Assembly (NCBI GenBank): GCA_043814605.1
Contig: JBDRJV010000047.1
Span: 5,077-69,076, forward strand
Direction of reading: 5' to 3'
DNA: 64,000 nucleotides
DNA from: Candidatus Omnitrophota bacterium
GTDB lineage: Bacteria > Omnitrophota > Gorgyraeia > B26-G9
Of the stretch, positions 10,353 through 48,208 are shown one piece after another (the first letter of the stretch is position 1; each line of letters begins with the position of its first letter). A program made the translations under genes and the position numbers. The notes beneath the pieces were generated by a model. That model had not been told where the DNA came from, searched no databases, and was given only the letters and a program-made list of their open reading frames with translations.

Positions 10353-10420
10353 TCTCTCTACTAGTTGAAAACATTAATATATTTTCAGTGAAATCCCGCT
10401 AAGGCGGGGCTACTCGCTAC
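10353..10420 (+). repeat. REP-like dispersed palindromic element, copy 1
   Basis: ctctctact-agttgaaaacattaatatattttcag-tgaaatcccgctaaggcggggctactcgctac. Contains the CCCGC-TAAG-GCGGG hairpin. Confidence 0.8.
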
Positions 10421-10602
10421 TATTTACTTAAAAAAATAAGTTTAATTATTTTGTAATGAATAAAATATGAATGGTGAGTTTTGCAAGTGAACTGTATATA
10501 TAAGCGTATTTTAGAGGAATTGAGTATTTTTCTCTCTACTTGCTACTCGCTTGTGCCCGTAAGGGTACTACTCTCTACTTAAAAAAAGAAGGAGCTAAAA
10601 AC

Positions 10603-13745: not shown

Positions 13746-13876
13746 AAAAGAAATAATTGCTGTGTCGCGTTTGGGAAATATAAATAATGTTGTGTAATGT
13801 TTAATGTGTTATGTGTAATGAATTTTTTATGCATCAAGCTCCAGGCTGCAAGCTTCAGGGGTTTTAGCTTGCGACT

Positions 13877-13934
13877 TGTTGAGAACATTAATATATTTTT
13901 AGCGAAATCCCGCTAAGGCGGGGCTACTCGCTAC
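13877..13934 (+). repeat. REP-like element, copy 2 (preceded by the gcatcaagctccaggctgcaagc module from 13831)
   Basis: Near-identical to copy 1. Confidence 0.8.
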
Positions 13935-13950
13935 TTTTAAAAGAGGCTTC

Positions 13951-21452: not shown

Positions 21453-23684
21453 ATGAACCTTTTTTCTTTTTCGTCATTAATAGTTTTTGTATCAAATTTG
21501 ATTTTGACTATTTTTTTATTGATTCAAGGAAGGAAGCAAAAAGTTAGTTATATTTTGAGTATTTTTAGCTTGCTTGCTACTGTTTGGGGATTAGGCGCGT
21601 ATAAATTTTCTTCTACCAACTTGATTGAAGAAGCTTTATTTTGGAGAAAGATAGCTAATGTGGCAGTTATTTTTAGCCCTGTTTGTTACTATTATTTTAT
21701 ATGTGAATATTTAGAGTTAAAGAACAAAAAGCATAAAATGCTTCTTTTTGTATCTTTTCTTTTTAGCATATTTTTTGTTTTTTCGAATTTCTTTTTACCG
21801 CCTAAGTTTTTTGTTGGTGGTTTAAGAATCGTTTTTAGCCAGTTCTACTATCCAGATTGGTTTCAATATAAGAGTTTTTTGTATTTATTTTTTTATGGAA
21901 CATTTTATTTGTTATTATTAGGATATGCTTTTCTTTTATTGCTGACGGCATATGTAAAAGCTACCCCTAAGCTAAGAAATACATTGAAGTATTTTATTTT
22001 GGGTTCAGTATTTGGATGGTTAGGCCCGACGTTTATGTGGCTGATAGAATTTAGAATAGACATATATCCTTATGCAAATTTCTTAATAGCAATATACCCA
22101 GCAATTTGGGCCTATGCTATTATAAAACATCGTTTAATGGATATTAAAGTTGCAATTACGCGCGGAGCAATTCTTTTAATAGTTTACGGATTTATCGTAG
22201 GATTGCCATTATTAACAATTTTAATAGCAAAAGATTATTTGCAAAATAATTTTGCAGATAAATGGTTTTATCCGCCATTGGCTTTGTATACTCTGTTAGC
22301 TTTATTTGCGCCGTATATTTATCTAACATTGCAAACAAAAGCTGAGCAAAAAAGAATACGTCAGCAAATCCATTTGCATCAATCTTTAAAAGCCGCGTCT
22401 AAAACTACCATTGAAGTGCAAAGCATTGATAAGCTGGCTAAAATCATTCCTAGGTACCTAATTAGGCTTTACAGCCGATTGGACAATAAGATCAGCCACA
22501 TTACATTATTCCTTAAAGATAAGAAAAAAGAAGAGTATAATTTGCGTTCATCTGTAGGAAACCAAAAATTGCAATCAGATATTTTGATTAATTCCGATAG
22601 CTACCTTGTGAAATGGTTTACCAAGGTCAGAGAAGTTTTAGTAGAAAACGGAGTATTAAGAGCCAAGGAAGTGGAAGTATTGGTTTATGAGGATATTGAT
22701 TTTTGGATGAATAAGGCTAGTATTTTAAGTGTGCCTTATAAAGGCTTGAATAAAGTATTATTAAATCTAAAAAAAGAAATGAGGGGATTAAAAGCCAGTG
22801 TGATTTTACCCTCTGTCTACCAAAAAGAATTGTTAGGGTTTTTGATTTTAGGCGAGAAAACTCCGGATCCGTATTCTTTAAATGATATTGATACTTTGTT
22901 AATCCTATCAAATGATATGACAATAGCTTTAAAATCACAGGAAATTATTGAAGATTTGACAAAAACACAAGCACATTTAGTGCAGTCAGAGAAACTAAAG
23001 GTTGTGGGAGAAATAGCTTCTTGTTTAGCTCATGAAGTAAAAAATCCGCTAACAACTCTAAAAACTTTCTCTGAATATTTACCACAAAAGATGCAAGAAA
23101 AAGATGAAGAATTTATTGAAAAGTATCGCAGATTGGTTCCTCCTGAGATTGAAAGGATAAATTCAATAGTTCAGAAATTATTAGATTTTTCTAAGCCAAA
23201 TCTTCCTAATTTTCAAAAAACAGATTTAAAAGCGTTGATAAAAGAGGTGGTAGAGTTTTTGAGTGAGAAGTTTTTAAAAAATAAAATAAAAGTAATAGAA
23301 AATTATTCGAAAGATTCCCTAATGCTAAAAATTGATCAGCACCAGATAAGACAAGTATTGTTGAACCTGATATTAAACGCGATAGATGCTATGCCCGAAG
23401 GAGGCAATATTAGTATAAGCTCAGAAATGTTAGATAACGCTATAAAAATAGAAATTAGTGATACAGGCAAAGGGATTCCTGAGGATGAGTTGAAAAATAT
23501 CTTTGATCCGTTCTTTACCAAGGGTAAGGAAAACGGTACAGGGCTAGGCTTGTTTGTGGCCAACCAGATCATGAGCCTGCATAATGGTTTAATAAAAGTT
23601 AAAAGTAAGTATGGCGAAGGCACCAGTTTTGTGCTAAAATTTGCTTTAGGCGATGAAGGGCCCAAGGGAACGGAGAAGAGTTAA
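21453..23684 (+). CDS. sensor histidine kinase, multi-TM sensor + GAF-like middle + HisKA + HATPase_c
   Basis: HEVKNPLTTLKTF H-box. The middle domain and the last ~90 aa are near-identical to the 17110 kinase. The DHp domain matches the 30290 kinase instead. Confidence 0.85.
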   Translation: MNLFSFSSLIVFVSNLILTIFLLIQGRKQKVSYILSIFSLLATVWGLGAYKFSSTNLIEEALFWRKIANVAVIFSPVCYYYFICEYLELKNKKHKMLLFVSFLFSIFFVFSNFFLPPKFFVGGLRIVFSQFYYPDWFQYKSFLYLFFYGTFYLLLLGYAFLLLLTAYVKATPKLRNTLKYFILGSVFGWLGPTFMWLIEFRIDIYPYANFLIAIYPAIWAYAIIKHRLMDIKVAITRGAILLIVYGFIVGLPLLTILIAKDYLQNNFADKWFYPPLALYTLLALFAPYIYLTLQTKAEQKRIRQQIHLHQSLKAASKTTIEVQSIDKLAKIIPRYLIRLYSRLDNKISHITLFLKDKKKEEYNLRSSVGNQKLQSDILINSDSYLVKWFTKVREVLVENGVLRAKEVEVLVYEDIDFWMNKASILSVPYKGLNKVLLNLKKEMRGLKASVILPSVYQKELLGFLILGEKTPDPYSLNDIDTLLILSNDMTIALKSQEIIEDLTKTQAHLVQSEKLKVVGEIASCLAHEVKNPLTTLKTFSEYLPQKMQEKDEEFIEKYRRLVPPEIERINSIVQKLLDFSKPNLPNFQKTDLKALIKEVVEFLSEKFLKNKIKVIENYSKDSLMLKIDQHQIRQVLLNLILNAIDAMPEGGNISISSEMLDNAIKIEISDTGKGIPEDELKNIFDPFFTKGKENGTGLGLFVANQIMSLHNGLIKVKSKYGEGTSFVLKFALGDEGPKGTEKS

Positions 23685-23884: not shown

Positions 23885-24922
23885 ATGCTGGAGATTTTGG
23901 TTGTTGATGATGAGCAAGAAATTGCTAAGGCACTAAAGAGATTTTTTGATCAAAAAGGATATTCTGTCCATATTGCCCATGACGGGAAAACTGCTGTTGA
24001 GCTGGTTAGGCAGCACCGGCCTCACCTTGTGTTCTTAGATATTCGTATGCCGCTGATGGATGGGTTAAGTGTGTTACGGAATATCCGTAATTATGACACG
24101 ACAATAAAAGTAATCATGGTTACAGCTTTTGGTACAAAAGAAATTGTTAATGAAGCTATGCGCCTGGGCGCAGTGGATTTTATCCGCAAACCTTTTACCC
24201 GTACATATCTGGAGCAGGAAGTTATGGCTAAGGTTAGCATCCAGCTTTTTGAAGATCTTCGCCAGGAAGTAGATGAGAAAAATAAATTAATTGATCAGCT
24301 TGAGAATTTAAACCAGAGAGCAGCAAGAAATTTTTATCAGACCGTGCTTTCTCTGGCTGCCGCATTAGAATCACGGGATTATTATACCCATGGCCATTCT
24401 GAACGCGTGGAAATGTACAGTAAACTTATTGCCAAAGAATTAAAAACAACGCTGGGTTTAGATATTAATAAGAAATTTATGGATGATTTGCATATTGAAT
24501 CAAGATTGCATGATATTGGTAAGATCGCGGTTTCAGATACAGTCCTGAATAAACCCGGAAGATTGACTCATGCTGAATACAATGAAATAAAAAGGCATCC
24601 GGGTGAAAGCGCGAGAATTCTGGCGCCATTAGATAATATTAAAGAAAATATAGAAGTTATTTATTCTCATCATGAACGCATTGACGGAAAAGGTTATCCG
24701 GATAATAAGACTGATAAAAAAATCCCATTAAGAGCCAAGATTATTGCTGTAGCTGATGCTTTTGATGCGATGACGTCAGACCGTCCGTACCGAAAAGCAA
24801 TGTCTGGAAAATATGCATTTACCGAACTTGAAAAAAACAAAGAAATTCAGTTTGATGCAGAAGTTGTTCATGCTTTTGTCTCTGCATATAATAAAAAAGA
24901 AACAATAGCTTTAAAAATTTAA
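23885..24922 (+). CDS. response regulator with HD-GYP phosphodiesterase output domain
   Basis: REC domain (VVDDE, FLDIRMPLMDG) plus HD..H..HHER.DGKGYP motifs. Confidence 0.85.
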   Translation: MLEILVVDDEQEIAKALKRFFDQKGYSVHIAHDGKTAVELVRQHRPHLVFLDIRMPLMDGLSVLRNIRNYDTTIKVIMVTAFGTKEIVNEAMRLGAVDFIRKPFTRTYLEQEVMAKVSIQLFEDLRQEVDEKNKLIDQLENLNQRAARNFYQTVLSLAAALESRDYYTHGHSERVEMYSKLIAKELKTTLGLDINKKFMDDLHIESRLHDIGKIAVSDTVLNKPGRLTHAEYNEIKRHPGESARILAPLDNIKENIEVIYSHHERIDGKGYPDNKTDKKIPLRAKIIAVADAFDAMTSDRPYRKAMSGKYAFTELEKNKEIQFDAEVVHAFVSAYNKKETIALKI

Positions 24923-25185
24923 AAACTACTTTGAAACTACTTCGTATAAGGAAGCTAAATCCGCCAAGTGTTTTCAAAGAAGAGAACAGTGGCGAGATAA
25001 AAAGCGAGTAATAGGACGCAGTGTTTATCAGGATTTATCAGTGTTCTCTGATTTACCCTGAGCTTTTTTCGAAGGGGATTCCTTAGAGGGAAAAGTAAAT
25101 ATATGTTGACAAAATAACATAAATATGTTATTTTTACAGTTAAAATAACATGTACACGTAGAACCTAAAAGTATAGGCATGATAA

Positions 25186-26334
25186 ATGCATTTTAAACGC
25201 AGCTTAAACCTTAAAAAATTCAATACAAGCTTATTTCTTTTTGGCCCTCGTTTAACAGGAAAAACTACATTATTAAAATTACTTTCCTTTGATGAATATT
25301 TTGATTTGCTAGATCCGGAATTAGAACTGGAGTATCGAACAAATCCTAAGCAATTTTGGCAGCAAATATCCGCGATGAAAAAAGGATCCCGCATCATTGT
25401 CGATGAGATTCAAAAAGTGCCGATACTTTTAAATTATGTGCAAAAAGCAATAGATCAGCTAGGGCATAAATTTATTCTCTCAGGATCAAGCGCCAGAAAA
25501 TTAAAACGCGGCGGAGCAAATCTTTTAGGTGGGCGGGCGTTAGATTTAAGACTGCATCCTTTAACATCCGAAGAATTAGGAGATAATTTTTCCTGTGATT
25601 TTAGTATGCAGTATGGAACATTACCGCGAATTTCTGATTTAATCAGTGAAAATAATTTAGACTTAGCTAAGCAGCATTTAAAAAGTTATATTTCAACCTA
25701 TCTTAAAGAAGAAATTCAAGCGGAAGCATTGACTCGGAATGTGGGCGCTTTTAACCGGTTTTTGAATATTGCCGCACAAAGTAATGGCCAGTTTATTGAA
25801 TTTTCTAATATTTCCCGGGAATGCTCTGTGCCGGCAAGCACGGTGAAGGAATATTATCAAATTCTTGAAGATACTTTAATCGGATTTTTTTTGTGGCCAG
25901 ATGATCGCAGTGAGAGAAAAAAAGCAAGGCCTAAATTTTATTTTTTTGATTGCGGTGTCTTAAGATCAATACAAAACAGGCTTAATGATCCTCCTACAGC
26001 TATTGAATTAGGGTGTCTTTTTGAAACATGGTTTGTTAATGAAATATTGCGCTTAAGAGATTATCTGGGCAAAGAACATCAGTTTTCTTTTTGGCGGGAG
26101 AGAGACCAGGAAATTGATATTTTAATTTCAGGGGGCCGGGGGGTAATTTTAGCGATTGAATGTAAATCCGGGAAAGTTAATAAGTGCCCAAATGCTGTAA
26201 ATAGTTTTAAAAAAAAGTTTCCTAAAGTTCCGATTATAATTGCTTCGTTACAAGAACCCAAAGCTAAACTTGTGGGGAATGTGAAAGTTTTACCTTATAA
26301 ACAAGCGATAGATTATTACAAAAATTTAAAATAA
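25186..26334 (+). CDS. AAA+ ATPase with C-terminal DUF4143 / PD-(D/E)xK-like domain (COG1373 family)
   Basis: GPRLTGKTT, IVDEIQ, C-terminal EIDILI...AIECKS. Confidence 0.8.
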   Translation: MHFKRSLNLKKFNTSLFLFGPRLTGKTTLLKLLSFDEYFDLLDPELELEYRTNPKQFWQQISAMKKGSRIIVDEIQKVPILLNYVQKAIDQLGHKFILSGSSARKLKRGGANLLGGRALDLRLHPLTSEELGDNFSCDFSMQYGTLPRISDLISENNLDLAKQHLKSYISTYLKEEIQAEALTRNVGAFNRFLNIAAQSNGQFIEFSNISRECSVPASTVKEYYQILEDTLIGFFLWPDDRSERKKARPKFYFFDCGVLRSIQNRLNDPPTAIELGCLFETWFVNEILRLRDYLGKEHQFSFWRERDQEIDILISGGRGVILAIECKSGKVNKCPNAVNSFKKKFPKVPIIIASLQEPKAKLVGNVKVLPYKQAIDYYKNLK

Positions 26335-26422
26335 AAACAAAAGAGAAACAAATAATTCAAATAATAATATTGATTTAACGCGGGCAATTCATGAATTGCC
26401 CCTTATATGCGGAGGAATGTGC

Positions 26423-27472
26423 ATGCTGAAAATTCTGGTTGTAGACGATGAACCGGCAATAACCGATATTCTGGAAAATTTCTTTAAAAAGAAAAAATAC
26501 GAAGTATATGTTGCCAATAACGGACAGATTGCCTTAGATATTATCAAAGAACAAAGGCCGCATCTAGTGTTTCTGGACGTTAAAATGCCGGTTATGGACG
26601 GCTTAACAGTATTGCGTAATATCCGCATGATTGATAATAGTATTAAAGTAATTATGGTGACAGCCTATGAGGATGAAGAAACAGTTAAAGAAGCAAAATC
26701 ATTAGGGATTGTCGATTATATCCATAAACCGTTTAAGCTGGAATATCTGGAAAAAGATGTTATTGAAAAAGTTAATGCCCAGCTATTTGGGGATTTACGG
26801 CAGGAATTAGACGAAAAAAGCAAACTGGTTGAACGCTTGGCGCAGGAAGTAGAAAAAGTAAGCACTTTAAATAAAAAATTAAAACGAAATTTTTACCAAA
26901 CAATACTTTCTTTAGCTACCGCATTAGAAGCCCGCGACCGCTACACCCACGGCCACTCTGAACGCGTGGATCTGTACAGCAAGCTTATTGCCGAAGAATT
27001 AAAAGAAGGATTTAGCTGGAAAATAGATGATGAGTTTATGGAAAAACTGCATATTGAATCAAGATTGCATGATATCGGGAAGATCGCTATCCCGGATATG
27101 GTTCTAAATAAACCGGGAAAATTAGATGATGAGGAGTTTAACCAGATTAAATCTCATCCTGTATACAGTGCGCATATTTTAGAGCCGTTAGAAGATTTAA
27201 AAGAAAGCAGTGAAGTAATCCGGCACCATCACGAACGCGTTGACGGAAGAGGTTATCCCAGCGGATTTACCCGGGAACAGATGCCGGTACGCTCAAGAAT
27301 TATTGCAGTGGCAGATTCATATGATGCCATGACATCAGACCGGCCTTATCGAAAATCAATGCCGATTGAAACTGCATTATCTGAACTTGAGAAAAATAAA
27401 GGCACACAGTTTGACGCTGAAGCTGTAGACGCGTTTATCAGCGCTTATAAAAAAGGTAAAATTCCCAATTAG
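26423..27472 (+). CDS. response regulator with HD-GYP phosphodiesterase output domain (paralog of 23885)
   Basis: MLKILVVDDE start by analogy to the paralog (MLEILVVDDE). GGAGG RBS 8 nt upstream. HHERVDGRGYP. The ORF track extends to an upstream ATG at 26396. Confidence 0.8.
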   Translation: MLKILVVDDEPAITDILENFFKKKKYEVYVANNGQIALDIIKEQRPHLVFLDVKMPVMDGLTVLRNIRMIDNSIKVIMVTAYEDEETVKEAKSLGIVDYIHKPFKLEYLEKDVIEKVNAQLFGDLRQELDEKSKLVERLAQEVEKVSTLNKKLKRNFYQTILSLATALEARDRYTHGHSERVDLYSKLIAEELKEGFSWKIDDEFMEKLHIESRLHDIGKIAIPDMVLNKPGKLDDEEFNQIKSHPVYSAHILEPLEDLKESSEVIRHHHERVDGRGYPSGFTREQMPVRSRIIAVADSYDAMTSDRPYRKSMPIETALSELEKNKGTQFDAEAVDAFISAYKKGKIPN

Positions 27473-27515
27473 GGTGAAGGGTGATGGTGGAAGGGGGAGG
27501 AAAAGCTTTTTTCTT

Positions 27516-27587
27516 GCTACTTTCTACTCTTTGAGAACATTAATATATTTTCAGCGAAATCCCGCTAAGGCGGGGCTCCTCGCTACT
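27516..27587 (+). repeat. REP-like element, copy 3 (immediately upstream of mtnP)
   Basis: ctactctttgagaacattaatatattttcagcgaaatcccgctaaggcggggctcctcgctac. Confidence 0.8.
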
Positions 27588-27608
27588 AATCAATAACTAG
27601 GAGCGATT

Positions 27609-28469
27609 ATGGAAAAAATTAAAATTGCGATTATCGGCGGCAGCGGGATTTATGATATTGAAGGGGTAAAAGACGTCACTACCTTGGATATCGATACTCC
27701 GTTTGGAAAACCTTCGGACAAAATTATTGTGGGAACTTTAGAAGGCGTAAGATTTGCGTTTTTACCGCGGCATGGACGAGGACACAGAATATCTCCGTCA
27801 GAGTTAAATTTTAGAGCTAATATTTACGCTTTAAAATCAATCGGGGTTGAGCAAATTCTTTCGATATCTGCAGTGGGCAGTTTAAAAGAAGAGTTAAAAC
27901 CGCGTGATTTTGTTGTGCCGGATCAGCTTTTTGACCATACAAAAGGCCGGCCAAGTACATTTTTTGGCGAAGGGATTGTGGCGCATGTCGGTATAGCTGA
28001 CCCGTTTTGTCCGGACTTAAGCCGCATTGCTTATGAAACGATTAAAAACTTGGGCATTGCTGTGCATAAGGGCGGGACTTATATTTGTATCGAAGGGCCG
28101 CAATTTTCTACCAAAGCCGAGTCAAATGCTTATCGCAAGATAGGTTTTTCGATTATTGGTATGACTGCTATGCCCGAAGCAAAGCTCGCCCGGGAAGCAG
28201 AAATATGCTATACAACCATTGCATTGGTTACGGATTATGATGTGTGGAAAGAAGATGAAGAAGTGACTTTAGAAAAAGTTCTGGCAAATCTATCCGCAAA
28301 TACAGAAAACGCTAAAAAGTTTATTAAAACCGTATTACCAAAACTGGTGCGGGAATTGAAATGCTCCTGCCAAAGCGCATTATCCACAGCCATTGTCACA
28401 GCTCCTGACGCCATGCCAAAAAAGACAAAAGAAAAATTAGGTTTGCTGATTAAAAAATATGTGAAATAA
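27609..28469 (+). CDS. mtnP: S-methyl-5'-thioadenosine phosphorylase (MTAP/PNP family)
   Basis: IGGSGIYDI N-terminal motif and a phosphate-binding region typical of MTAP. Confidence 0.8.
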   Translation: MEKIKIAIIGGSGIYDIEGVKDVTTLDIDTPFGKPSDKIIVGTLEGVRFAFLPRHGRGHRISPSELNFRANIYALKSIGVEQILSISAVGSLKEELKPRDFVVPDQLFDHTKGRPSTFFGEGIVAHVGIADPFCPDLSRIAYETIKNLGIAVHKGGTYICIEGPQFSTKAESNAYRKIGFSIIGMTAMPEAKLAREAEICYTTIALVTDYDVWKEDEEVTLEKVLANLSANTENAKKFIKTVLPKLVRELKCSCQSALSTAIVTAPDAMPKKTKEKLGLLIKKYVK

Positions 28470-28493
28470 TTTATAGGCTGCAGGTTTCAATTC

Positions 28494-28555
28494 ACCCCGT
28501 CTCAGCGGGATTTCGCTAAAAATTAAATTAATGGTCTCAACAAGTCACAAGTCTA
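28494..28555 (-). repeat. REP-like element, copy 4, variant hairpin CCCGCTGAGACGGGG (immediately downstream of mtnP, inverted relative to copy 3)
   Basis: Reverse complement matches the consensus. Followed by the gcttgcagcctggaacttgatgcat module. Confidence 0.75.
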
Positions 28556-28636
28556 AAAAACCCTGAGGCTTGCAGCCTGGAACTTGATGCATAAAAATTC
28601 ATTATGCAATTATTGGAATTTTTATCTGCTTCGTTT

Positions 28637-29557
28637 TTAACTTCTATAGTCTAGTTGCGATAAACGGGATTCGATAATACGCAAAAAATCTTTTTTTTCT
28701 TGATCCGTAAGCCGGGAATTATTAACAAGCTCTTTGATGTTGCTGATTTTAGTTAAAATATTTTTAAAGCAGGTTTCAGTTTTAATGCCTAGATAATCCG
28801 CAAAATATTTAAAGTCAGCGTAAGTGATTTTATTTTTTTTACCGTTTAAAGTCAAAGCCAGATCATCTTCATCAGGAATTACCAGTTTTGTACAAACGAT
28901 GTCATAAGCCGGGCTTAAGCGGATGCGGCCTTGCGGGGTGTAAATCAGGGAAAAGTTTTTTAGATGAGCGTCCCCGTTGCCGATTATGAAAAAAAGCAGG
29001 ACTCTTTCGAAAAATAACTGCACATCCAGTCCCGGGAATTCAGACGAAGTTTTTATTTTTTGGCCGATTTTTTCTAAGGAACATTTATATTTACCTTCTT
29101 CGGTTAAGATCTGCATAAAATCTTCCATGTGCAGTTTTTCTTTTTTATCCCGGTCAAAACGTTTTACGATGTAAGCCGTGCTATTATCAGCCAACTGGAT
29201 TAAAGTATGCGAGGGCACTGCTATTCCCAGATTATAGGCAATGTTCATGCAGAGGTTTTCATTCTGCGGGATATTCGGAAAAGTTTCTAACTGAGGTTTT
29301 AAAATATATTCACCGTTTTCCTGGGCAACTTCTAATTTTTTATTTTTTCGGTTGAGTTTTAGGGATAGTTTTACTTGTACTCCGGAGATAGACATTTTTC
29401 CCGCCATATCCTGAGCTTTGAGTGATATATTTTTTAAATCAATATCAATTTTGGGAAAATAATCCGTGTTAAAAAGCTTTTTTAAACAGCGGGAATGATA
29501 TTCAGAATCATTTTTAGTTTTTATTCCGCAAAAATCACAATACTTATTCATGAACAA
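28637..29557 (-). CDS. hipT: HipA-family Ser/Thr kinase toxin lacking the N-terminal subdomain (HipT-like)
   Basis: Gly-rich loop SISGVQVKLS, catalytic loop GNGDAHLKNFS, SPAYDIV. 306 aa. Overlaps the upstream 109-aa gene by 14 nt. Confidence 0.75.
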   Translation of the reverse strand: MFMNKYCDFCGIKTKNDSEYHSRCLKKLFNTDYFPKIDIDLKNISLKAQDMAGKMSISGVQVKLSLKLNRKNKKLEVAQENGEYILKPQLETFPNIPQNENLCMNIAYNLGIAVPSHTLIQLADNSTAYIVKRFDRDKKEKLHMEDFMQILTEEGKYKCSLEKIGQKIKTSSEFPGLDVQLFFERVLLFFIIGNGDAHLKNFSLIYTPQGRIRLSPAYDIVCTKLVIPDEDDLALTLNGKKNKITYADFKYFADYLGIKTETCFKNILTKISNIKELVNNSRLTDQEKKDFLRIIESRLSQLDYRS

Positions 29558-29873
29558 TCATTTCCTCGATAGACACCGCGCCGATAGTATCTTTACAGGT
29601 ACTCAGTAATATTTTGAAAGAATCACTTTTGTCAATTTTTAACTTTTTGGATACAATATCTAAATACCAGCCTTCAGGGATTAAGCCTTTAAAAAACGGG
29701 AACATTTTTTCGCTGGTATATGTTTTCTGATTAATCGGCAGGGAAAGGGAAATCCCTAAAGAATTTTTGATAAATTCATCATCATAAGTAAATTTATAAC
29801 CGGTTTGGGTTTTTTCCAGGATTCCGGCTAAAATATTATTAAATTTTACAATCGCCTTAGGGTTGTTTTTCAT
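29544..29873 (-). CDS. hipS: HipA N-terminal-subdomain-like small protein (HipS-like)
   Basis: 109 aa. Position and size match the HipS component of tripartite hipBST loci. Overlaps both neighbours. Confidence 0.6.
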   Translation of the reverse strand: MKNNPKAIVKFNNILAGILEKTQTGYKFTYDDEFIKNSLGISLSLPINQKTYTSEKMFPFFKGLIPEGWYLDIVSKKLKIDKSDSFKILLSTCKDTIGAVSIEEMIVHE

Positions 29874-30069
29874 TTTTTATGGCTTCAATATGGTAACCAA
29901 AAAATTCAAGCACCTGATTTATTTTATCTATTCTGAGAGTTTGCTTGCCTTGTTCGAGCTCTCTTAAAAAACGTAAGCCAACCCCGGCTCTTTTAGCTAA
30001 TTCAACCTGAGTTAATTTTGCGGCTTTTCTTAATTGTTTGATGCTTTTTTGAATTTTTTGGTTGTACAT
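29857..30069 (-). CDS. hipB: XRE-family HTH protein (HipB-like)
   Basis: HTH TQVELAKRAGVGLRFLRELE. ATG at 30069 with a GGAG RBS. The ORF track's GTG at 30099 would overlap the operator palindrome. Confidence 0.7.
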   Translation of the reverse strand: MYNQKIQKSIKQLRKAAKLTQVELAKRAGVGLRFLRELEQGKQTLRIDKINQVLEFFGYHIEAIKNEKQP

Positions 30070-30092
30070 ATATCTCCATTTTATGTTTAAAT

Positions 30093-30237
30093 TATACACC
30101 CTAAGAGGTATAATGTCAATGATTTTTAAAAAAAATTATACCCTTTAAGGATTATATTTATTAAATTGAATAAAATTATGCTCAAAAAAGCATAAAATTG
30201 CCTATCAATATTGCATTTTACACCCTTTAGGGTATAT
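30093..30237. promoter_or_regulatory. three operator-like palindromes TATAC(A)CC-N3-6-GGTATA in the hipBST promoter region
   Basis: 30093-30112 tatacaccctaagaggtata. 30137-30156 tataccctttaaggattata. 30218-30237 tacaccctttagggtatata. Confidence 0.6.
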
Positions 30238-30289
30238 AGTATTTGTGTTTACCAGAAGATATCAGTGTTCATCTGTGTTATCTAAGGTT

Positions 30290-31906
30290 TTATTTTTGCG
30301 GAATCTTTATCCTAAAGATGCTTCCTTTATCTACTTCACTTTCAACTTCAATCGTTCCATTATGATTTTGAATGATCTGCCTACATATGGATAGTCCTAA
30401 TCCTGAACCTGTGTGTTTAGTTGTAAAAAATGGATTAAAAATATTATCTAATGCTTTTTTGCTGATGCCGCAGCCAGTATCTTTGATTTCAATAGTTGAT
30501 GTATTTTTATCCGATGCAACAGATATAAAAATCTCACCGCCCTTAGGCATTGCTTCTATGGAATTTAAGATTAAGTTTAATAAAACCTGCTTAATTTGAT
30601 TGGAATCAATGTGAATCAATAATTCTGGATTTTCATATTCTTCATGAACTTTAATTTTATTTTTTAAGAATTCATTATTCAAGAATTCTAATATATCTTT
30701 AATCAGATTAGCAATATTTGTGGGTTTTAAATTGGGTTCTGCAGGTTTGGAAAAATCCAGTAATCTGTGAATAATATTATTTATCCGTTCAACTTCTGAA
30801 GGGATAAGCTTATTGAATTTATCAAAAAACTCATCATCTTTGTCTTTATATTTATCCTTAATGTATTCTGAAAATGTTTTAATCGTAGTCAAAGGATTTT
30901 TTACTTCATGTGCTAAGCCTAGAGCCATAGTTGTAGCAACCTTTAAACGTTGGGATTTTTCTAGTTCATGATGTAGGAGTTTGTTTTCTGTAGCAAATTC
31001 TTCAGTGGTTTTACCCAGAAATAAACGGTCGATAATTTTTTGGATTTTGTTACGGAGAGGATTAAACAATATAGCAATAATAAAAGTAGCGACTAAACTT
31101 ACAGGCAGAGATGTGTATCCAATGATATTTTTAAATAGCCACTCAATACCTACAATTAGTAATAGGTATATTCCAGTTAATATAGCTATAAGAATTGAAT
31201 AGATCAAACTTTTTTGTAAAGCTACTCTAATTCCCATAATTTGATGTTTAAATATTCCTATACACATGCATATTATCATAAGTGGAATACAAAAATATCC
31301 TAGTGGGTATATTTCTAACCCGTATTTACCTAAAAAATCAATTGGTCCAATAATAGTTCCTAAAACAAAAGGATACAGAGCAAAATAAAGTTGTTGTTTT
31401 TCTGAGGATGTAATATTAGGCTGATTAATTTTTTTGTAAATAATATAAATGACTAAAATTACTAAAACAGACCATATGAATTGAAACATGTAGTGGTAAT
31501 TACCAGCTTTAGGATAAAATCCCCAAAAGTGAGTATAGAAACCTGCGAGTATAGTATTAGTTTTAAATAAGAAGTAAACGAGAGTTAAATAACCTACTAG
31601 TAAACTTATTGTTACAATTTTTTTTAATTTTATTCCGGTTATTTTAGCAGTAAAATATAAACAAGAAAATGGTAATCCTCCAACTCCAAGGTAAACAGAT
31701 CTAGATAAAAAGTTAGCAAGAATTTTATTTGTGGTTGAGAAAAGAATAGCATCTGAGAATTGCCAAATAAATAAAGATAGACAGAATAAAAACCAACCAA
31801 AATTAATACCTGATTTAATATTTTTATTCCATACATATATTCCTAATAAAATAATTAATATGGCGCTGATAAATGGCGGGATGGAATATGCACTAAATAT
31901 AAGCAT
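30290..31906 (-). CDS. sensor histidine kinase, multi-TM sensor + HisKA + HATPase_c
   Basis: HEVKNPLTTIKTF H-box. GSGLGLSICRQII G2 box. About 8 TM helices. Confidence 0.85.
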   Translation of the reverse strand: MLIFSAYSIPPFISAILIILLGIYVWNKNIKSGINFGWFLFCLSLFIWQFSDAILFSTTNKILANFLSRSVYLGVGGLPFSCLYFTAKITGIKLKKIVTISLLVGYLTLVYFLFKTNTILAGFYTHFWGFYPKAGNYHYMFQFIWSVLVILVIYIIYKKINQPNITSSEKQQLYFALYPFVLGTIIGPIDFLGKYGLEIYPLGYFCIPLMIICMCIGIFKHQIMGIRVALQKSLIYSILIAILTGIYLLLIVGIEWLFKNIIGYTSLPVSLVATFIIAILFNPLRNKIQKIIDRLFLGKTTEEFATENKLLHHELEKSQRLKVATTMALGLAHEVKNPLTTIKTFSEYIKDKYKDKDDEFFDKFNKLIPSEVERINNIIHRLLDFSKPAEPNLKPTNIANLIKDILEFLNNEFLKNKIKVHEEYENPELLIHIDSNQIKQVLLNLILNSIEAMPKGGEIFISVASDKNTSTIEIKDTGCGISKKALDNIFNPFFTTKHTGSGLGLSICRQIIQNHNGTIEVESEVDKGSIFRIKIPQK

Positions 31907-31908
31907 TT

Positions 31909-32271
31909 TTAAATATTATTTTTAACTTTTTCTAAAATATCTTTAGAATCAAAAGGTTTGACAATATAGTCAATCGCGCCTTTTTCCGCAGCTTCCTGCG
32001 CGATTTCCGCGCTTTTATAACCAGTAACAATGATTACTTTTTTATCCGGGAATTTTTCTTTAATGCATTGAGTAACTTCTAACCCGTTCTGCACAGGCAT
32101 TTTGATGTCTAAAAGCACGAGGCTAATGGAAGATTTATTTTTTAAAGCAGACAGGCATTCATTGCCGTTTTTGGCAAAGACCAGGTCATAATCTTTTTCC
32201 AGGATCAGCTTTAATGATTCGCGTATTCCTTCTTCATCATCACAAATTAAAATTCTTTTTTTATCGCGCAT
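31909..32271 (-). CDS. response regulator, receiver domain only
   Basis: ICDDEEGIRE, LDIKMPVQNG, KPF. Only 2 nt separate it from the kinase. Confidence 0.85.
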   Translation of the reverse strand: MRDKKRILICDDEEGIRESLKLILEKDYDLVFAKNGNECLSALKNKSSISLVLLDIKMPVQNGLEVTQCIKEKFPDKKVIIVTGYKSAEIAQEAAEKGAIDYIVKPFDSKDILEKVKNNI

Positions 32272-32345
32272 AATTTACCTCCATAATTAATTTTATTTGA
32301 TTTTATTAAATTAATTAAATTCCAAATCATTTAATGTTTTGTTTT

Positions 32346-32380
32346 TCATTTGTCATTTGTTCATTTGACATTTGTCATTC
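32346..32380 (+). repeat. tandem heptamer repeats (TCATTTG)n in the promoter region of the minus-strand RR/HK operon
   Basis: tcatttgtcatttgttcatttgacatttgtcattc. A related array lies at 54537-54574 upstream of the GalT-like gene. Confidence 0.6.
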
Positions 32381-32393
32381 TTGTAGCCTACGA

Positions 32394-32948
32394 CTACAAG
32401 GCTATTGGACTTACCACGACCAGTAATTTCGCTTCCTGCTCTCCGATGTTTTTAATCGCATGCGGCATGGACGCGTCAAAATATATGGTTGAATTTTTCT
32501 TTAAATCATAAATTTTATCAGAGATTGATAACTCTGCGTTTCCTTCTAAACAGTAAATAAACTTATCTGTGCCGGGCTTGTTTTCTTCCCGGGAAGTGCT
32601 TTTACCTGCGGCAATCGTTAAAAGCTGTGGCAGCATTTTTTTGTTTTTTATGGGCTTAGAAAGAATTACCGATGTAACGCTCTCATCAAAAGTAAATACT
32701 TCTTCTTCCATATTTACATTATCTAAAAAAGAAATTTTTTCATCTTTTTTATCCAGATCTTTATAGAATTCTCCAATGTTCAGGTTTAGGGCATGGCAGA
32801 TCCTTAAATGCGTGTTCAGATTGCCGGTAGTAATGCCGTTTTCAATGCGGCAGAGCGTGGCCTTGCCCACACCGGACATTTGCGATAAGGCGTCAAGCGT
32901 AAGATGCTTGCCTTTACGTAAAAGTTTTAGTTTTTTCCCCAGTTTCAT
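32394..32948 (-). CDS. XRE-family HTH + cupin-domain transcriptional regulator
   Basis: N-terminal HTH (LSQMSGVGKATLCRIENG). C-terminal cupin beta-barrel region. Confidence 0.7.
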   Translation of the reverse strand: MKLGKKLKLLRKGKHLTLDALSQMSGVGKATLCRIENGITTGNLNTHLRICHALNLNIGEFYKDLDKKDEKISFLDNVNMEEEVFTFDESVTSVILSKPIKNKKMLPQLLTIAAGKSTSREENKPGTDKFIYCLEGNAELSISDKIYDLKKNSTIYFDASMPHAIKNIGEQEAKLLVVVSPIAL

Positions 32949-33665
32949 AGTACCTTTCTCTTCAAATTTTTCTGCTTTAGCTGTTTTAAAAAAGGATAAC
33001 CCAGTTCAATTATTTTTGCTCATTCTCGTCCCGCTTCCTGCGGGACTCCGAGGGAGACCGCAGATTTATTACATCCATGTAAAATCAGCTAGTCTAATCC
33101 GCAAAAACAATTGCTCTGTTTTATCAAGAGCTAAGCAAAGCTTGTGTTTTTAGCTAGTATCCAGAATCCAGGATCTAGTATCCAGTATCCAGACTGTCCC
33201 TAAATAAAAATTTACCACAAATGGAACAGGAAAGCAAGAACTTTTGTGAAAATTAATGTGAACATGCAATATGTTGTAAACAAATACGTTAAAATTTTTT
33301 AAACAATTATTATTTTTACCACAAGGAATATTATTGACAGATTATTTAAATATACTATTTTCATAAATGGAATTAAAAGGAGTAGGTTCCGGGGAGAAAA
33401 TTTATAGCTGATATCCTTTGCAAGGACTCCAGCTCGGATATTTACTTAAAAGTAAATTTCCGAGGGGGCTTATGCTGATAGTAAGTTAAGGGGGGATTAG
33501 GGACGATAAATATGTTGATGCTGATTTTGTTTTGTAACATCAGCTTATCAAAATAGCAACAAAAATTCTAAAAAATTTAAAATAATCATAAATCTATAAC
33601 TATTTTAATTGCAATAGGTTAAAATTTTTACACGTTTAAATATTCCATATTAGCAAAAAATATTG

Positions 33666-33693
33666 TTGACAAAAATGAAAAATATGGTATTAT
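33666..33693 (+). promoter_or_regulatory. sigma70-like promoter TTGACA-N16-TATTAT upstream of the tail-fibre-like gene
   Basis: Consensus hexamers. About 260 nt of leader follow before the ATG at 33953. Confidence 0.5.
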
Positions 33694-33896
33694 CATAAGT
33701 GGAACAAAAGTTTGCTCATTAAGAAAAAAATTTAAAAATTTGAATTGACTCGCCAAAAAGCGTGGCGTATAGGTCGCAAATAAAGCAACTGTAGATTTAA
33801 TGAAGAGCTTAAGTATAAGCTCATTTTCCCCGATACTTAAACATTTGAAAATTTTGAAAAAATTTTCTGCATAAGTTTCGGGATAAATTCGCGCAG

Positions 33897-33946
33897 ACAG
33901 CTTATGTCGCTTGATAAGCTCCATAAGTTGTGCGCTCATTTAGGAG
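33897..33946 (+). promoter_or_regulatory. conserved 5'-leader hairpin motif (copy 1) immediately upstream of the RBS of the tail-fibre-like gene
   Basis: CAGCTTATG-N15-CATAAGTTG stem followed by GTGCGCTCATT and the RBS. The homologous motif sits upstream of the RHS gene. Confidence 0.55.
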
Positions 33947-33952
33947 GGGAAT

Positions 33953-34969
33953 ATGAAAAAGTTAGCAGTTGTAGTTTTGGTGATTGGATTAGGAATTATT
34001 GTTGATTGTGCAAATATATTTGCTGGAGATGGAGATTTGATTGTGGGGGGGAATCTTGGTATTGGCACAGCAACTCCATCTGAGAAATTAGAGTTGGGGG
34101 TTTTAGGTGTTCCTGCATTTATAAAAATCTCCGGAGGACATCCCGGAGGTTCAGAAGCAGTTGGTTTAAAATTAAAAAGTTATTACCGTAATTGGAAAAT
34201 GGTTGTCAATGATAATCCAGTAACCAGTACTACAGGGCTACAACTTTGGGATGGAACTAATGTTAGATTACAGTTTACAGATAACGGATATGTTGGTATT
34301 GGCACAGTAACTCCATCTGAGAAATTAAAAATTAGTATCCCGGGAGTTTCGACATTTATGAAAATCACGGGTGGCAATCCTGGCGGAGGATCAGAAGCAG
34401 TGGGTGTGAAATTAAGCAGTCCTTATCGAAATTGGAGAATAGCTGTAAACGATGATTCGGTGCGTAGTACTGCAGGATTACAAATATTTGATGGGGCAAA
34501 TATCCGTTTGCAAATTGCAGATAACGGATATTTAGGAGTTGGGACAATAGCTCCGAGCCGCAAATTATTTGTAAACGGTGATGCGGGTGGATTAACACCT
34601 TGGTATAGTGCATCAGATGAGCGTTTAAAGAAAAACATTAGTACAATTGATAGCGCTCTAGATAAAGTTATGCAATTGCGGGGTGTGAATTTTGAATGGG
34701 ATGAGGCAGTTATCGAAGAAAAATACAAATGTAAGAAAGAAGCAAAAGATAAGCAAAATAAAACAAAATATTTTACAGAAGGAGTGCAAATGGGGCTTAT
34801 TGCCCAAGAAGTTGCCGAAGTAATTCCGGAAGTTGTTTCCACCGACGGAGAGCATTATTCGATTTGTTATGCGAGCATGGTCGGAATTCTCGTGGAAGCA
34901 GTCAAAGAACAGCAGGCGCAAATTCAGGATTTACAGCAAAGAGTAAATTATTTAGAGGGGAAAGAATAA
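33953..34969 (+). CDS. secreted tail-fibre-like repeat protein with C-terminal intramolecular-chaperone (peptidase S74) autoproteolytic domain
   Basis: Signal peptide. Three ~55-aa internal repeats (GIGTxTPSEKL...GG.PGG.SEAVG.KL). C-terminal SDERLKKNI...GVNFEW...MGLIAQEV motif of endosialidase/tail-spike chaperone domains. Confidence 0.7.
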   Translation: MKKLAVVVLVIGLGIIVDCANIFAGDGDLIVGGNLGIGTATPSEKLELGVLGVPAFIKISGGHPGGSEAVGLKLKSYYRNWKMVVNDNPVTSTTGLQLWDGTNVRLQFTDNGYVGIGTVTPSEKLKISIPGVSTFMKITGGNPGGGSEAVGVKLSSPYRNWRIAVNDDSVRSTAGLQIFDGANIRLQIADNGYLGVGTIAPSRKLFVNGDAGGLTPWYSASDERLKKNISTIDSALDKVMQLRGVNFEWDEAVIEEKYKCKKEAKDKQNKTKYFTEGVQMGLIAQEVAEVIPEVVSTDGEHYSICYASMVGILVEAVKEQQAQIQDLQQRVNYLEGKE

Positions 34970-35035
34970 GAAAACCAGAAAAACGAAAAAATATTTTAAT
35001 GAACAGGCAACCTCTTAACCAAAGGGGAAAAAAAA

Positions 35036-36417
35036 TGAAATTCTATAAATCTTTAATATTACTTTTTCTCTTACTTGTAATTTTTTCTCAGGGTTTGCCA
35101 GTATTGGCGCAGACGCTTTTTCCTATTAGAATTTTAGAAAATCCATCATTAACTTTTTCTACTTTGCAATCTGCCTATAACCAGGCGCAATCTGGCCAGA
35201 CAATTCAATGCCGCGCTGTAACTTTAAATGAATCAGTTACTCTTAACCGTGATATTGCGGTTACGATTTGCGGCGGCTATAACAGTGATTTTTCGCAAAA
35301 AACAGATGCAGTAACAGTTTTAATCGGCGGAGTTGCTTTAAACAGCGGTACAGCAATTTTGGATAATTTATCAGTTTCTTTTACGGACACGCAAACTGTT
35401 CCGGATACGCCGACTTTAGTGGAAGTCAGATATTTGGACACAAAAGTTTACTTAAATTGGAGCAGTGTGAATAATGCGGATGGATATATTGTCAAATACA
35501 GTACAACCAGCGGAACTTATACTTATACTGAATACATTGAAGCTGGTACAAGCCATGTGGTCACAAATTTAACGAATAATACGCAATATTATTTTGTGGT
35601 GAGCGCGTATAATGCGAGCGGCGTAAGTGATAATTCTAATGAATTAAGTGCGATGCCCCAGCCGCGGGAAGCAATTGCCGGCTATGAAACAGTATTTAGT
35701 AATGTTTCAACAAATGGGCTTTTTGCCGCCATGCCGATTATTATGAGTGAAGATGGGACGATTACCAGTATTAGTATGTTCCATAAAGCTGGCACAGGCT
35801 CTATGGTGTTAGGAATTTATAGCGGAGCAAATTCTCCCCAAACTTTACTAGCTACAACTCAAACCACAGCGATTGAAAATACAACAGGCTGGCAAACCAT
35901 AACGTTACTTAATCCTGTGCATGCGGAAAATGCAGAAACAATTTGGATAGCTTGGCTTTATTCGGTTAATCCCGGGATTCGCTATACAACAGGCGAACCG
36001 TCAGCTTATGCTTGCGGTGATAATTGGGATTCTTTAGGTGGTACAATGCCGGCTAATTTTCCCGCAAGTGGTGATTCCACTGTAATCGCTTCCTTATATA
36101 TAAATTATGTGCAAAACCAGCCGCCGCATATTACTGAACTTATTCCGGCAAATACAGCAACTCAAGAAGAAACAGATACCTTGACTTTTGAAGTTACTGC
36201 CAGTGATTATCATTTTGATCCGATTGAATATCAATTTGTAATTGATGATAATATTGTGCAATCCTGGACAAGTACAAATACTTATAATTGGGATACGCAG
36301 GAGAGTGATTTTGGCAAGCATTCTTTTAAAGTGCAAACTCGGGATGATATCGGCGCGCAGGAAGAGTCTGCTGTGCGCGAATTATTTATTTATCACAAAC
36401 CAATTTCAATAGAGTAG
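35036..36417 (+). CDS. secreted protein with fibronectin type III domain
   Basis: Signal peptide MKFYKSLILLFLLLVIFSQGLPVLAQ. FN3-like block (YLNWSSV..DGYIVKYS...YYFVVSAYN). Confidence 0.6.
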
Positions 36418-36484
36418 CAAGTAGCCCCGCCTTAGCGGGATTTCGCTTAAAATATATTACTGTTCTCAACAAGTAGAGAGTATT
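36413..36484 (-). repeat. REP-like element, copy 5
   Basis: Reverse complement: atactctctacttgttgagaacagtaatatattttaagcgaaatcccgctaaggcggggctacttgcta. Confidence 0.8.
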
Positions 36485-36558
36485 CCCGAGAAATTCAGGG
36501 GAATCTCCGGGACTAAATCCTGGAAATGCTTGGCATTTCACAGGGCAATTCGCATAGA

Positions 36559-36604
36559 TCACTTATGTCGTTAGTGCTCCATAAGTGATGTGCTCATTGA
36601 GGAG
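36559..36604 (+). promoter_or_regulatory. conserved 5'-leader hairpin motif (copy 2) immediately upstream of the RHS toxin gene
   Basis: ATCACTTATG-N12-CATAAGTGAT stem followed by GTGCTCATT and the RBS. The stem differs from copy 1 by compensatory changes. Confidence 0.55.
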
Positions 36605-36610
36605 ATGATT

Positions 36611-39600
36611 ATGAAAAAAATATTATTTAAATCCATGTCTGCGGTTCTGGCTGTAACCTGTTTTTTAAGTTTTACATTTAATGGATTAACCATTGCTAAG
36701 GCTGGCGAAAGCTCAGCTAGTATTGCCGCGAGTGGTGCGATTACACCGGGCGGAGCAACCAGTATAAACTTTTCCATGAATTCATTTCAAACCGATCTTT
36801 TCCGCGGTAATGCCTCTTATTCTGTGCCTATTGCAGTGCCTGGTGGCCGCAAAGGAATATCTCCTCAACTAGGTTTAAGTTATTCCAGTCAGCCGGCAAA
36901 TTCCTGGTGCGGTGTAGGCTGGAGTTTGGAGCTGGGTGCAATCACCCGCAGTATGAAAAATGGGTATCCCAAATATGACAGTACAGATATTTTTTCCTAT
37001 AACGGCGCAGAATTAGTAAATACAACTGGTAATGAATATCGTTTAAAAACAGATAATGCGTTTATGCGGTTTTTTAATAACGGTTCAACTTGGGAAGTAC
37101 TGGATACTAAGGGAACAAAATATAATTTTACAAGTACAATTACAACGCCATTGGGAATTTATCAATGGTCTTTAACCCGGGTGACTGATCTAAGTGGGAA
37201 TTATATGAGTGTGACTTATATTACGGATCAAAATCAGGTTTATCCGCAGCAAATTCAATATACAGGCAATGATAATACCAGTGCTGTGCCTTATTATACA
37301 GTTGATTTTGTTTTAGAAAATAGAACTGATACAATCACGCAGAATTTAATCATGCCCATTGCCAATACATCCGGCCCGGCAACTATTTTTAAAACTGTTA
37401 CTGCTAAAAGACTAAAAACTATTGAAGTTAAATACAGCGGGTCATTGATCAGAAAGTACATATTAAATTATCATGATAGTGCTGTTACTAAGCGATCAAT
37501 GCTTGAGAGTATTACATTATATGGCGAGGATGGGATAACTGCTTTAAATCCCATAACTTTTACTTATGATGAAACTGTTCCCTCGATTAATGCTTCAACC
37601 GGAGTTAATTTAAATACAGTACAAGGTAGCCCATTAATGGGTGATTTTAACGGTGATGGAATTAATGATATTTGTGTTGCTTTATATGAAGATTTCGGAG
37701 TTTATTTAGGTAATGCTGATGGAACTTTTCAATCTAGATCTATTTGGGGACATTATCCAGGATCAGATGCAGGAGCTTCTTTTTTTTCAACAGGAGATTT
37801 TAACGGTGATGGTTATACAGATATTTTTAATTTATTAGCATGGGGAAATGGTTGGGAAAACTATGGATTAATTGTGTACTTATCTGATAATGGAACAGGA
37901 TTTAAAAATGAAGCTTATTGGTATAGAGACACAAGGTCATTTTCTACACAAAGGCAACCGCTTGTTTTTTCTACTGATGTAAACAAAGACGGTAAAACCG
38001 ATATACTAGTTTTAGATAAGTATAGTGGAATATATAATCCGCCTCAAAGTAATGTGCCGGATATAAAAGGAAAATTCTATGTTGCTAATGACAATGCAAA
38101 TGGCTTTAATATCAGTGATCTGGAAAGTAATCTTTTTGTGGGAGAATATGGTAATTTTATGACCACTATAGGAGATGTAAACGGAGATGGAGAGTTAGAT
38201 ATGGTGTTTGGTTGTCATGGAGCAAATCTTGTAAAAGTTGCTTTGTATCCAGATTATATTTCAGGAAATATTATATCTCCTTATGTTTGGTTGTCCGGAC
38301 ATTTAATTGATAGCAATATAATAACCACAGATGTAAACTATGATGGTAAAAGTGATTTTTTAAGATTTTACTCACCTCAAGGGAATTGGGATTGTTTTCT
38401 TTCTAATGGAGCTAATTTTGAATCAAATTATCAAACCTGGTGCTCTTCATTTGGTGGGACAAGATGTCCAATTGCAGGTAATTTTGGTACTTCTAGCGTA
38501 ACAGTTCCCGGGACTTTTTATAATAATACTCATAATGGCACAGCAGAATGGCAGATTGCTCAAGCAACTTCAGCTAATGCACGTGCAGATTATTTATTAA
38601 GCGTGGATAATGGTGTTAGCGGAAGCTTAGACATAAATTATACACAATATCAAGAAGATACATTGCCGTTTATTCATTATGTGGTCGAATCCATTACTCA
38701 AAATGACGGCAGGGGAAATAGTTATACATCCAGGTATGAATACAGCGGCGCGCAATATGACCGCCAGGACCGGGAATTCCGCGGGTTTAATTGCGTGAAA
38801 GTTCTGGATGCGGATGGAAATTATTCTTTGAATTATTTTCATCAGGACGATATCTTAAAAGGTAAAACTTATTTATCAGAAACTCGTGATGCTGCGGGTA
38901 ACCTTTACGCAAAATCAGAAAATATTTGGGCAAGCACACAGCCATTTACCGGGGTTTATAATATTTTTGTCACCCAGCAAAATAATTATTCCTATGAAAC
39001 TCAAGCCACTCCCAAGCACACCCGGATGAATTATGATTATGATAGCTATGGCAATTGTACTTATGTGGGTTGTGAGGGATATTTAGATATTAGCGGTGAT
39101 GAAAAAACAGTACATACACAATATTATGCTCCGGCTGCGAATATTACATGTTTGCCTAGCCATACCTGGACACAAAATAGCAGCGGTTACAAAACTTCTG
39201 AGCAGTGGTTTGAATATGACGGAGGGACAAGTCTTTCTCACGGATTGCTGACAAAGCAGACTTCCTGGTTAGAGGGAGGGACTAATCCTGATGTTGAATA
39301 CACCTATGATGATTACGGCCAGGTGATTGAAGTAAAAGATGCCCTGTCTCGGACAACGACAACAGAATATGATAGCGCACAGCATTTATTCCCTATAAAA
39401 ATTACCAATGCTAAGGCACAGGAAATAACTTCTACTTATAATCCTAAAACCCAGCAGGTATTAACAATAACTGATGCTAATAATCAAACTACAACTAATC
39501 AGTATGATGTGTTCGGCCGCTTAATAAAAGTTATTGGGCCCAATGACACTGCAGCTTATCCCAGTGCCAGTTACAGTTATGATTTGAATGCAAATCCCAT

Positions 39601-47766: not shown

Positions 47767-48114
47767 AATGTTCAGAGAACATTTTAGACTAAAGACAACA
47801 GACTATAGACCAAAGACCAAAATTTTGAAAAACTTTTATTCTTGTACGATTGTAAATTGGTGTTAACGGAATAAAGTGATTAGCTGATTATTGGGAATCG
47901 AATAAAAACGCACTTTGTAAAATTATGTTTATTTTCTAATAATTTATGCCTGAAGACTTCGCCGCCAAAAAACCATCCCTGGTTTACGGCGTTTCGACGT
48001 CCTGTCTTCATCTTCATACATAAATTAAAGAAAATTACACATAATTTTTCCATAATTGCTTTTTTTATTTGATTCCCCGATAATTAAGATTATAAATAAT
48101 AGTTTTTTGTTTTT

Positions 48115-48176
48115 AACTTGTGACTTGTTGAGAACATTAATTTAATTTTTAGCGAAATCCCGCTGAGACGGGGAAA
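48115..48176 (+). repeat. REP-like element, copy 6, variant hairpin CCCGCTGAGACGGGG
   Basis: cttgtgacttgttgagaacattaatttaatttttagcgaaatcccgctgagacgggg. Same variant as copy 4. Confidence 0.75.
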
Positions 48177-48208
48177 CTTGGGGCTTGCAGCTATTCAAAA
48201 ATAAATAT

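Follow-up and report, generated by a model that had tools for sequence, protein, structure and literature searches.

Is a kinase gene of the HipA family that lacks HipA's N-terminal subdomain, and that is preceded by two small genes, part of an intact tripartite toxin-antitoxin operon, or is it the remnant of a bipartite one? The question is raised by a locus on the minus strand of a 64,000-nucleotide stretch of DNA (hereafter the window) from a Candidatus Omnitrophota bacterium (contig JBDRJV010000047.1). A preliminary description had proposed the HipBST arrangement, in which the subdomain missing from the kinase is encoded by a gene of its own. Our analysis leads us to conclude that the locus is very probably a chromosomal, self-repressing, tripartite type II toxin-antitoxin operon of the HipBST type. 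Its gene order, the three family memberships, the intact catalytic and regulatory motifs, the promoter with its operators and the conservation in relatives are established. The genes are the following.

29857-30069, minus strand: hipB, a 70-amino-acid helix-turn-helix (HTH) repressor of the Y4mF/couple_hipB type.
29544-29873, minus strand: hipS, a 109-amino-acid homologue of HipA N-subdomain 1, the presumed antitoxin.
28637-29551, minus strand: hipT, a 304-amino-acid core kinase (HipA_C) that lacks N-subdomain 1, presumed to be the toxin.

The three genes are co-directional and tightly coupled, with one promoter upstream and one terminator-like hairpin downstream. The hipB ATG is preceded by GGAG at 30074-30077. 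The HTH protein, the 109-amino-acid protein and the HipA-family kinase of the preliminary description all lie where it had placed them, and both motifs that it quoted, ISGVQVKLS and GNGDAHLKN, are found in the kinase open reading frame (ORF). Its account of the gene boundaries needs some adjustment. The overlaps had been given as 14-17 nt: the upper figure is that between hipB and hipS (17 nt), whereas the lower one, between hipS and hipT, applies only to a TTG start at 29557, which would yield a kinase of 306 amino acids (28637-29557). We take the hipT start to be the ATG at 29551, because the resulting 304-residue protein is 100% identical to a deposited NCBI protein from a Candidatus Omnitrophota metagenome-assembled genome (MAG; P0001) and fits the MxxCxxCG N-termini of homologues; the overlap with hipS is then 8 nt.

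Each protein can be assigned to its family. HipB matches Pfam HTH_3 (3.5e-11) and scores 72.9 bits against TIGR03070 (couple_hipB), for which the cut-off is 71.65; its top solved relative is HipB of Legionella pneumophila, HipB(Lp) (8ezt_A, 5.2e-06). The relationship of the 109-amino-acid protein to the HipA N-subdomain, on which the preliminary description hinged, is borne out by matches to Pfam Couple_hipA (1.9e-25, 89.7 bits; cut-off 22.5) and TIGR03071 (1.5e-28, 98.9 bits; cut-off 27.8). Among solved structures, HipS is closest to its Legionella counterpart (7vkb_B, 3.4e-19), followed by Haemophilus influenzae HI_0666 (1.3e-15) and the HipS of Escherichia coli O127 (7ab3_B, 1.1e-10), and it also matches residues 2-103 of HipA. 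The tryptophan of its PEGW motif, W69, aligns with the PEGW tryptophan of the E. coli (W65) and H. influenzae HipS proteins, and the motif is kept in 65 of 79 related HipS sequences as counted with a regular expression.

The kinase matches Pfam HipA_C over residues 55-271 of the 306-amino-acid ORF (2.1e-48), and only about 50 residues precede its Gly-rich loop. Against solved structures it finds first the Legionella HipT (7vkb_A, 2e-50), with which it is collinear over the full length of that 312-320-amino-acid protein, and next the E. coli HipT (3.8e-19); HipA ranks below the HipT structures, with much poorer matches (1e-07 to 1e-09) that extend over a part of the protein only. HipT as modelled with AlphaFold2 (pLDDT 89, pTM 0.89) and compared with Foldseek gave TM-scores of 0.89 to the Legionella structure 7vkc and of 0.81-0.86 to E. 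coli HipT (7ab4/7ab5), with 0.63-0.71 (query-normalised) to full-length HipA. The absence of N-subdomain 1 from the kinase is thus not the product of a frameshift, and the kinase corresponds end to end to a separately encoded HipT. [quoted passage not shown]

29369-29392, minus strand: Gly-rich loop S54-I-S56-G-V-Q-V-K61, with the S-psi-S auto-phosphorylation motif; S54, S56, G57 and K61 invariant.
28955-28981, minus strand: catalytic motif G191-N-G-D194-A-H196-L-K-N199; invariant columns.
28901-28906, minus strand: Mg-binding Y216-D217; invariant columns.

The latter two align with GNEDMHLKN and SPAYD of Legionella HipT. The S-psi-S motif, of the E. coli type, is as defined in PMC10627512, and its SIS form is found in 109 of 120 homologues.

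The arrangement is not peculiar to this genome. One genome per species was scanned, and the best 80 of the 355 stretches encoding a relative were compared. The order hipB-hipS-hipT on one strand recurs in 76 of the 80. Three of the four exceptions (L016, L049 and L055) sit on contigs that break off within hipS/hipT or immediately upstream of them; the fourth, L058, has upstream sequence available, in which a hipB was not found. The hosts include Omnitrophota, Elusimicrobia, Planctomycetes, Verrucomicrobia, Armatimonadota, Aminicenantes, Clostridia and others, and a protein search returned 4490 relatives at E <= 1e-10. The tripartite arrangement is therefore very widespread in uncultivated phyla. 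The HipT family is distributed patchily over many phyla at 50-64% identity, and its horizontal spread across them is evident.

Further Hip sequences turn up at two of the related loci. On a Verrucomicrobia MAG contig a second, more divergent set of hipB-, hipS- and hipT-like genes lies a few kb from the first (L080:5006-6344, minus strand), and a lone HipT-like fragment occurs at L067:6087-6524 (minus strand). These recall the duplicated Hip loci reported in Legionella.

Upstream of hipB, the promoter region contains the following elements; TATACCCTNNAGGGTATA is the 18-bp operator consensus.

30091-30119, minus strand: sigma-70-type promoter, TTGACA-17 nt-TATAAT, 12 of 12 matches.
30095-30112: proximal operator TATACCTCTTAGGGTGTA, which takes up the whole spacer of the promoter and ends 25 nt upstream of the hipB ATG; three mismatches to TATACCCTNNAGGGTATA.
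30137-30154: middle operator TAATCCTTAAAGGGTATA, 42 bp from the proximal one and overlapping a weaker promoter-like site (10/12); three mismatches to TATACCCTNNAGGGTATA.
30177-30194: off-consensus palindrome TATGCTtttttgAGCATA, with perfect 6-nt arms and six mismatches to the operator consensus, read from the sequence.
30219-30236: distal operator TATACCCTAAAGGGTGTA, 82 bp from the middle one; one mismatch to TATACCCTNNAGGGTATA.

The three palindromes of the preliminary description are real. A search of the whole 64-kb window with the consensus, allowing up to three mismatches, found four matches where 0.31 would be expected by chance, and none of 100 shuffles reached four. The fourth match, at 31294-31311, is isolated inside a histidine-kinase gene and has three mismatches; it was treated as a chance occurrence. 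The related loci display the same motif: upstream of hipB in 72 of them, 174 sites were counted in 18.7 kb, compared with 3 in the other 421 kb (an approximately 1300-fold enrichment). Start-to-start spacings in these relatives peak at 31, 41-42, 72 and 82 bp, corresponding to 3, 4, 7 and 8 helical turns, and the 42- and 82-bp spacings of the window fall on two of the peaks. Because a perfect promoter overlaps the proximal site, and because the phased motif is conserved upstream of hipB in relatives, the autoregulation by HipB that the preliminary description had predicted is supported at the level of sequence.

The operator TATACCC-N4-GGGTATA is common to at least eight phyla among the 80 related loci (L001-L080), and so offers ready material for testing how HipB recognizes DNA and whether repression is cooperative or looped. 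Many of these loci carry four operator sites 41-42 bp apart.

The palindrome TATGCTtttttgAGCATA sits in helical phase between the distal and middle operators, at 42 and 40 bp from them. It may represent a fourth operator that has decayed, or else a site for some other factor.

How might such an operon work? By analogy with the E. coli and Legionella systems, we infer that HipT is toxic, that HipS neutralises it and that HipB represses the operon, and we draw the likely class of target from the same source. HipT would be a HipA-like Ser/Thr kinase whose phosphorylation of an essential translation factor, most probably an aminoacyl-tRNA synthetase, brings growth to a halt, and HipS the antitoxin that holds it in check. 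HipB would act as a dimeric HTH repressor, binding the three helically phased 18-bp palindromes either alone or within HipB-S-T complexes. As the proximal palindrome occupies the promoter spacer, the operon would therefore repress itself.

Several points weigh against this picture or restrict it. The locus is known here from its sequence. Two of the three operators depart from the idealised consensus at three positions, and the operator sequence is unlike TTACTGCTATAACAGTAA, the only HipBST operator verified by experiment. That sequence is the Legionella operator, taken from an oligonucleotide table (PMC10653801); HipB(Lp) binds three evenly spaced 18-nt inverted repeats in electrophoretic mobility shift assays, the proximal one lying 24 nt before the start codon and overlapping the promoter (PMC10653801). 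The manner in which HipS would neutralise the kinase could be either of two. In E. coli the HipS tryptophan (W65) acts as a plug of the kinase active site (PMC10627512; PMC9325769), and the presence of W69 might suggest the same here; a P-loop mode is equally conceivable, because the Legionella HipS lacks the tryptophan (PEGI in its place) and neutralises through a loop-to-helix change in the P-loop (PMC9325769). Finally, the target of HipT cannot be transferred from a characterized system. E. coli HipT phosphorylates TrpS (PMC10627512), but the toxicity of Legionella HipT, the closest characterized relative, is rescued neither by TrpS nor by GltX and its target remains unknown (PMC10653801).

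One could envision that such an operon serves primarily in abortive infection or anti-phage defence, not in persistence or addiction: an incoming phage would set HipT free from HipS, and translation would be stopped by the kinase. Weak PADLOC matches link HipT and HipS to components of a candidate defence system, PDC-M03 (HipT to PDC-M03A, 3.1e-10; HipS to PDC-M03B, 3.9e-06), the related kinases HipF and HipG have been proposed to be activated by phage (Gerdes et al. 2021, PMC8262856), and the patchy spread of the family over phyla is typical of defence genes. However, the PADLOC matches are partial and score low, which means that the proteins do not belong to that family; further defence genes are absent within about 5 kb, and protection against phage by any HipBST system was not shown in the literature searched. 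On balance, defence seems to us an unlikely primary role for the locus. PDC-M03 itself appears to consist of a Hip kinase and a HipS-like partner.

These PADLOC matches would also be in keeping with another split Hip family (HipJS, HipIN or HipL), where a small core kinase is under the control of a HipS-like domain. Such systems likewise pair a core kinase of about 300 amino acids with a HipS-like protein or domain (PMC8262856), but in them the HipS-like gene follows the kinase gene, or forms a fusion with the kinase or with HIRAN, and hipB is missing upstream (PMC8262856). The present genes run hipB-hipS-hipT, the 109-amino-acid HipS carries no additional domain and genuine HipT and HipS structures give the best matches, which makes membership in one of these families very improbable. 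Lastly, although HipS and HipT together make up the HipA domain set and their genes overlap in different frames, a canonical hipBA whose hipA was split by a frameshift or an assembly error, leaving a pseudogene or an artefact, can safely be dismissed, because the split is conserved, with separate start codons, in the 76 related loci, and also in view of the end-to-end alignments of HipT and HipS with separately encoded Legionella proteins, the merely partial HipA matches, and HipT's N-terminal mini-domain, whose conserved CxxC...HxxC is absent from HipA.

As a HipBST operon, the locus joins a class described since 2019 and represented by crystal structures from two species; the source MAG record already gives the kinase as "HipA domain-containing", and to recognize the operon is in itself a routine matter. 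The mini-domain just mentioned and the operator motif that relatives share are small, testable additions rather than signs of a new kind of system.

29486-29539, minus strand: putative zinc knuckle, C5-x2-C8-x10-H19-x2-C22, at residues 5-22 of HipT within the N-terminal mini-domain, recognized from homologue conservation and the structural model.

Among the best 120 HipT homologues, the four candidate ligands are all kept in every one of the 77 with a full-length N-terminus, and the remaining homologues lack the first 16 or so residues, so that the Cys2-His-Cys pattern is all-or-none. In the HipT model the CxxC falls in a beta-hairpin and the HxxC at the start of a helix (residues 20-27), with a pLDDT of about 84. 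This placement has the layout of a zinc knuckle, from which we infer that the domain may bind a metal. The mini-domain of E. coli HipT lacks the Cys/His set, and Legionella HipT keeps a single Cys and not the CxxC...HxxC; no mention of a metal site was found in the HipBST literature searched. The all-or-none conservation of the set in most relatives suggests a metal site that is open to testing. One may speculate, with some reserve, that it ties kinase activity, HipB/DNA contacts or substrate choice to the metal or redox state, and that it was lost in the E. coli and Legionella model proteins. Together with the operator TATACCC-N4-GGGTATA it might then mark a large, unstudied HipBST subfamily, whose target is perhaps neither TrpS nor GltX.

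Is the operon part of a mobile element? Immediately upstream of it, on the same strand, a seven-transmembrane (7TM) histidine kinase is paired with a response regulator, and a PNP_UDP_1 (mtnP-like) phosphorylase gene is convergent with it. Pfam searches with nine neighbouring ORFs identified two-component proteins, the PNP_UDP_1 phosphorylase, an AAA_14/DUF4143 ATPase, a cupin-HTH protein and surface-protein-like genes, and no integrase, transposase, relaxase or plasmid gene within about 5 kb. The G+C content of the operon (0.33-0.38) is unremarkable for the region 24000-34800 (0.27-0.43). A mobile-element context is therefore not supported, and neither is the suggestion in the preliminary description that proximity to repeated ("REP") elements and mtnP points to a mobile or addiction module. 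The proximity is itself only half correct. A repeat copy does lie beside hipT, but it forms part of an inverted pair, 27507-27588 (plus strand) and 28484-28600 (minus strand), that brackets the mtnP-like gene and not hipBST, the second member being located between hipT and the phosphorylase gene. This copy supplies the terminator-like hairpin that follows hipT.

28556-28578, minus strand: intrinsic-terminator-like hairpin AGGCTGCAAGCCT with a T-run after it, about 60 nt past the hipT stop codon and belonging to the repeated intergenic element.
10341-10422 (plus), 13855-13936 (plus), 27507-27588 (plus), 48098-48178 (plus) and 28484-28600 (minus): the five copies of the repeated intergenic element, about 65-110 nt long.

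The element has the core TTGAGAACATTAAT..ATTTTYAGCGAAATCCCGCTRAGRCGGGG with a GC hairpin, and at least two plus-strand copies (13855 and 27507) stand directly 5' of a start codon. It is not a known RNA, as an Rfam scan of the whole window gave no match at the gathering threshold, and RNAalifold detected no compensatory changes among the five copies. A promoter and leader cassette is one possible reading of it, a repeat resembling a miniature inverted-repeat transposable element (MITE) another.

Two further features of the window lie away from the operon. Paralogous response-regulator/HD-GYP genes at 23885-24922 and 26396-27472 (both plus strand) are 70-77% identical at the DNA level over 139-185 nt, and another block (17711-19310 versus 22063-23674) is duplicated at a spacing of about 4.3 kb; both point to local tandem duplication of signalling genes. 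A cluster at 33953-43021 (plus strand) encodes a Peptidase_S74 (endosialidase chaperone) protein, an fn3/DUF4082 protein and a 2143-amino-acid ORF, proteins that look like giant surface or tail-fibre-like proteins.

How, then, does the Omnitrophota operon compare with the Hip systems already known? With the canonical HipBA modules of E. coli K-12 and Shewanella oneidensis it shares the fold of the kinase core, the catalytic motifs and an HTH repressor with several 18-bp palindromic operators overlapping the promoter (TATCC-N8-GGATA in E. coli). In HipBA, however, N-subdomain 1 resides inside the HipA polypeptide, the role of antitoxin falls to HipB and GltX is the target, whereas here the subdomain is a separate ORF, in a different frame, as it is in the relatives, and the presumed antitoxin. 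The HipBST of enteropathogenic E. coli O127:H6 (7ab3, 7ab4, 7ab5) resembles the operon in its tripartite organisation, with HipB as repressor and HipS as antitoxin, as well as in the dual-serine S-psi-S Gly-rich loop and the plug tryptophan of HipS. Its HipT is much more distant (22-24% identity, 335 amino acids), its HipB is longer, at about 107 amino acids, with a disordered N-terminus, and its target, TrpS, cannot be assumed for the present kinase.

The HipBST of L. pneumophila (Lpg2368-2370; 7vkb, 7vkc, 7wcf, 8ezr, 8ezs, 8ezt) has the same three-gene order and provides the best solved relative of all three proteins, with 36-39% identity for HipT and a HipB that is also short (76 amino acids, against 70 here). 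It too has three 18-bp palindromic operators, the proximal one overlapping the promoter some 24-25 nt before the hipB start. The operator sequence differs, being TTACTG-N6-CAGTAA in Legionella and TATACCC-N4-GGGTATA here, and the Legionella sites are evenly spaced at 71 bp start to start, as opposed to 42 and 82 bp. The Gly-rich loop of the Legionella kinase reads SVQ instead of SIS, its HipS has PEGI instead of PEGW, and HipT has been reported as a secreted effector. Judged by its sequence, the system of the window is thus a mixture of the two HipBST models, nearest to that of Legionella overall, with an SIS loop and a PEGW motif of the E. coli type.

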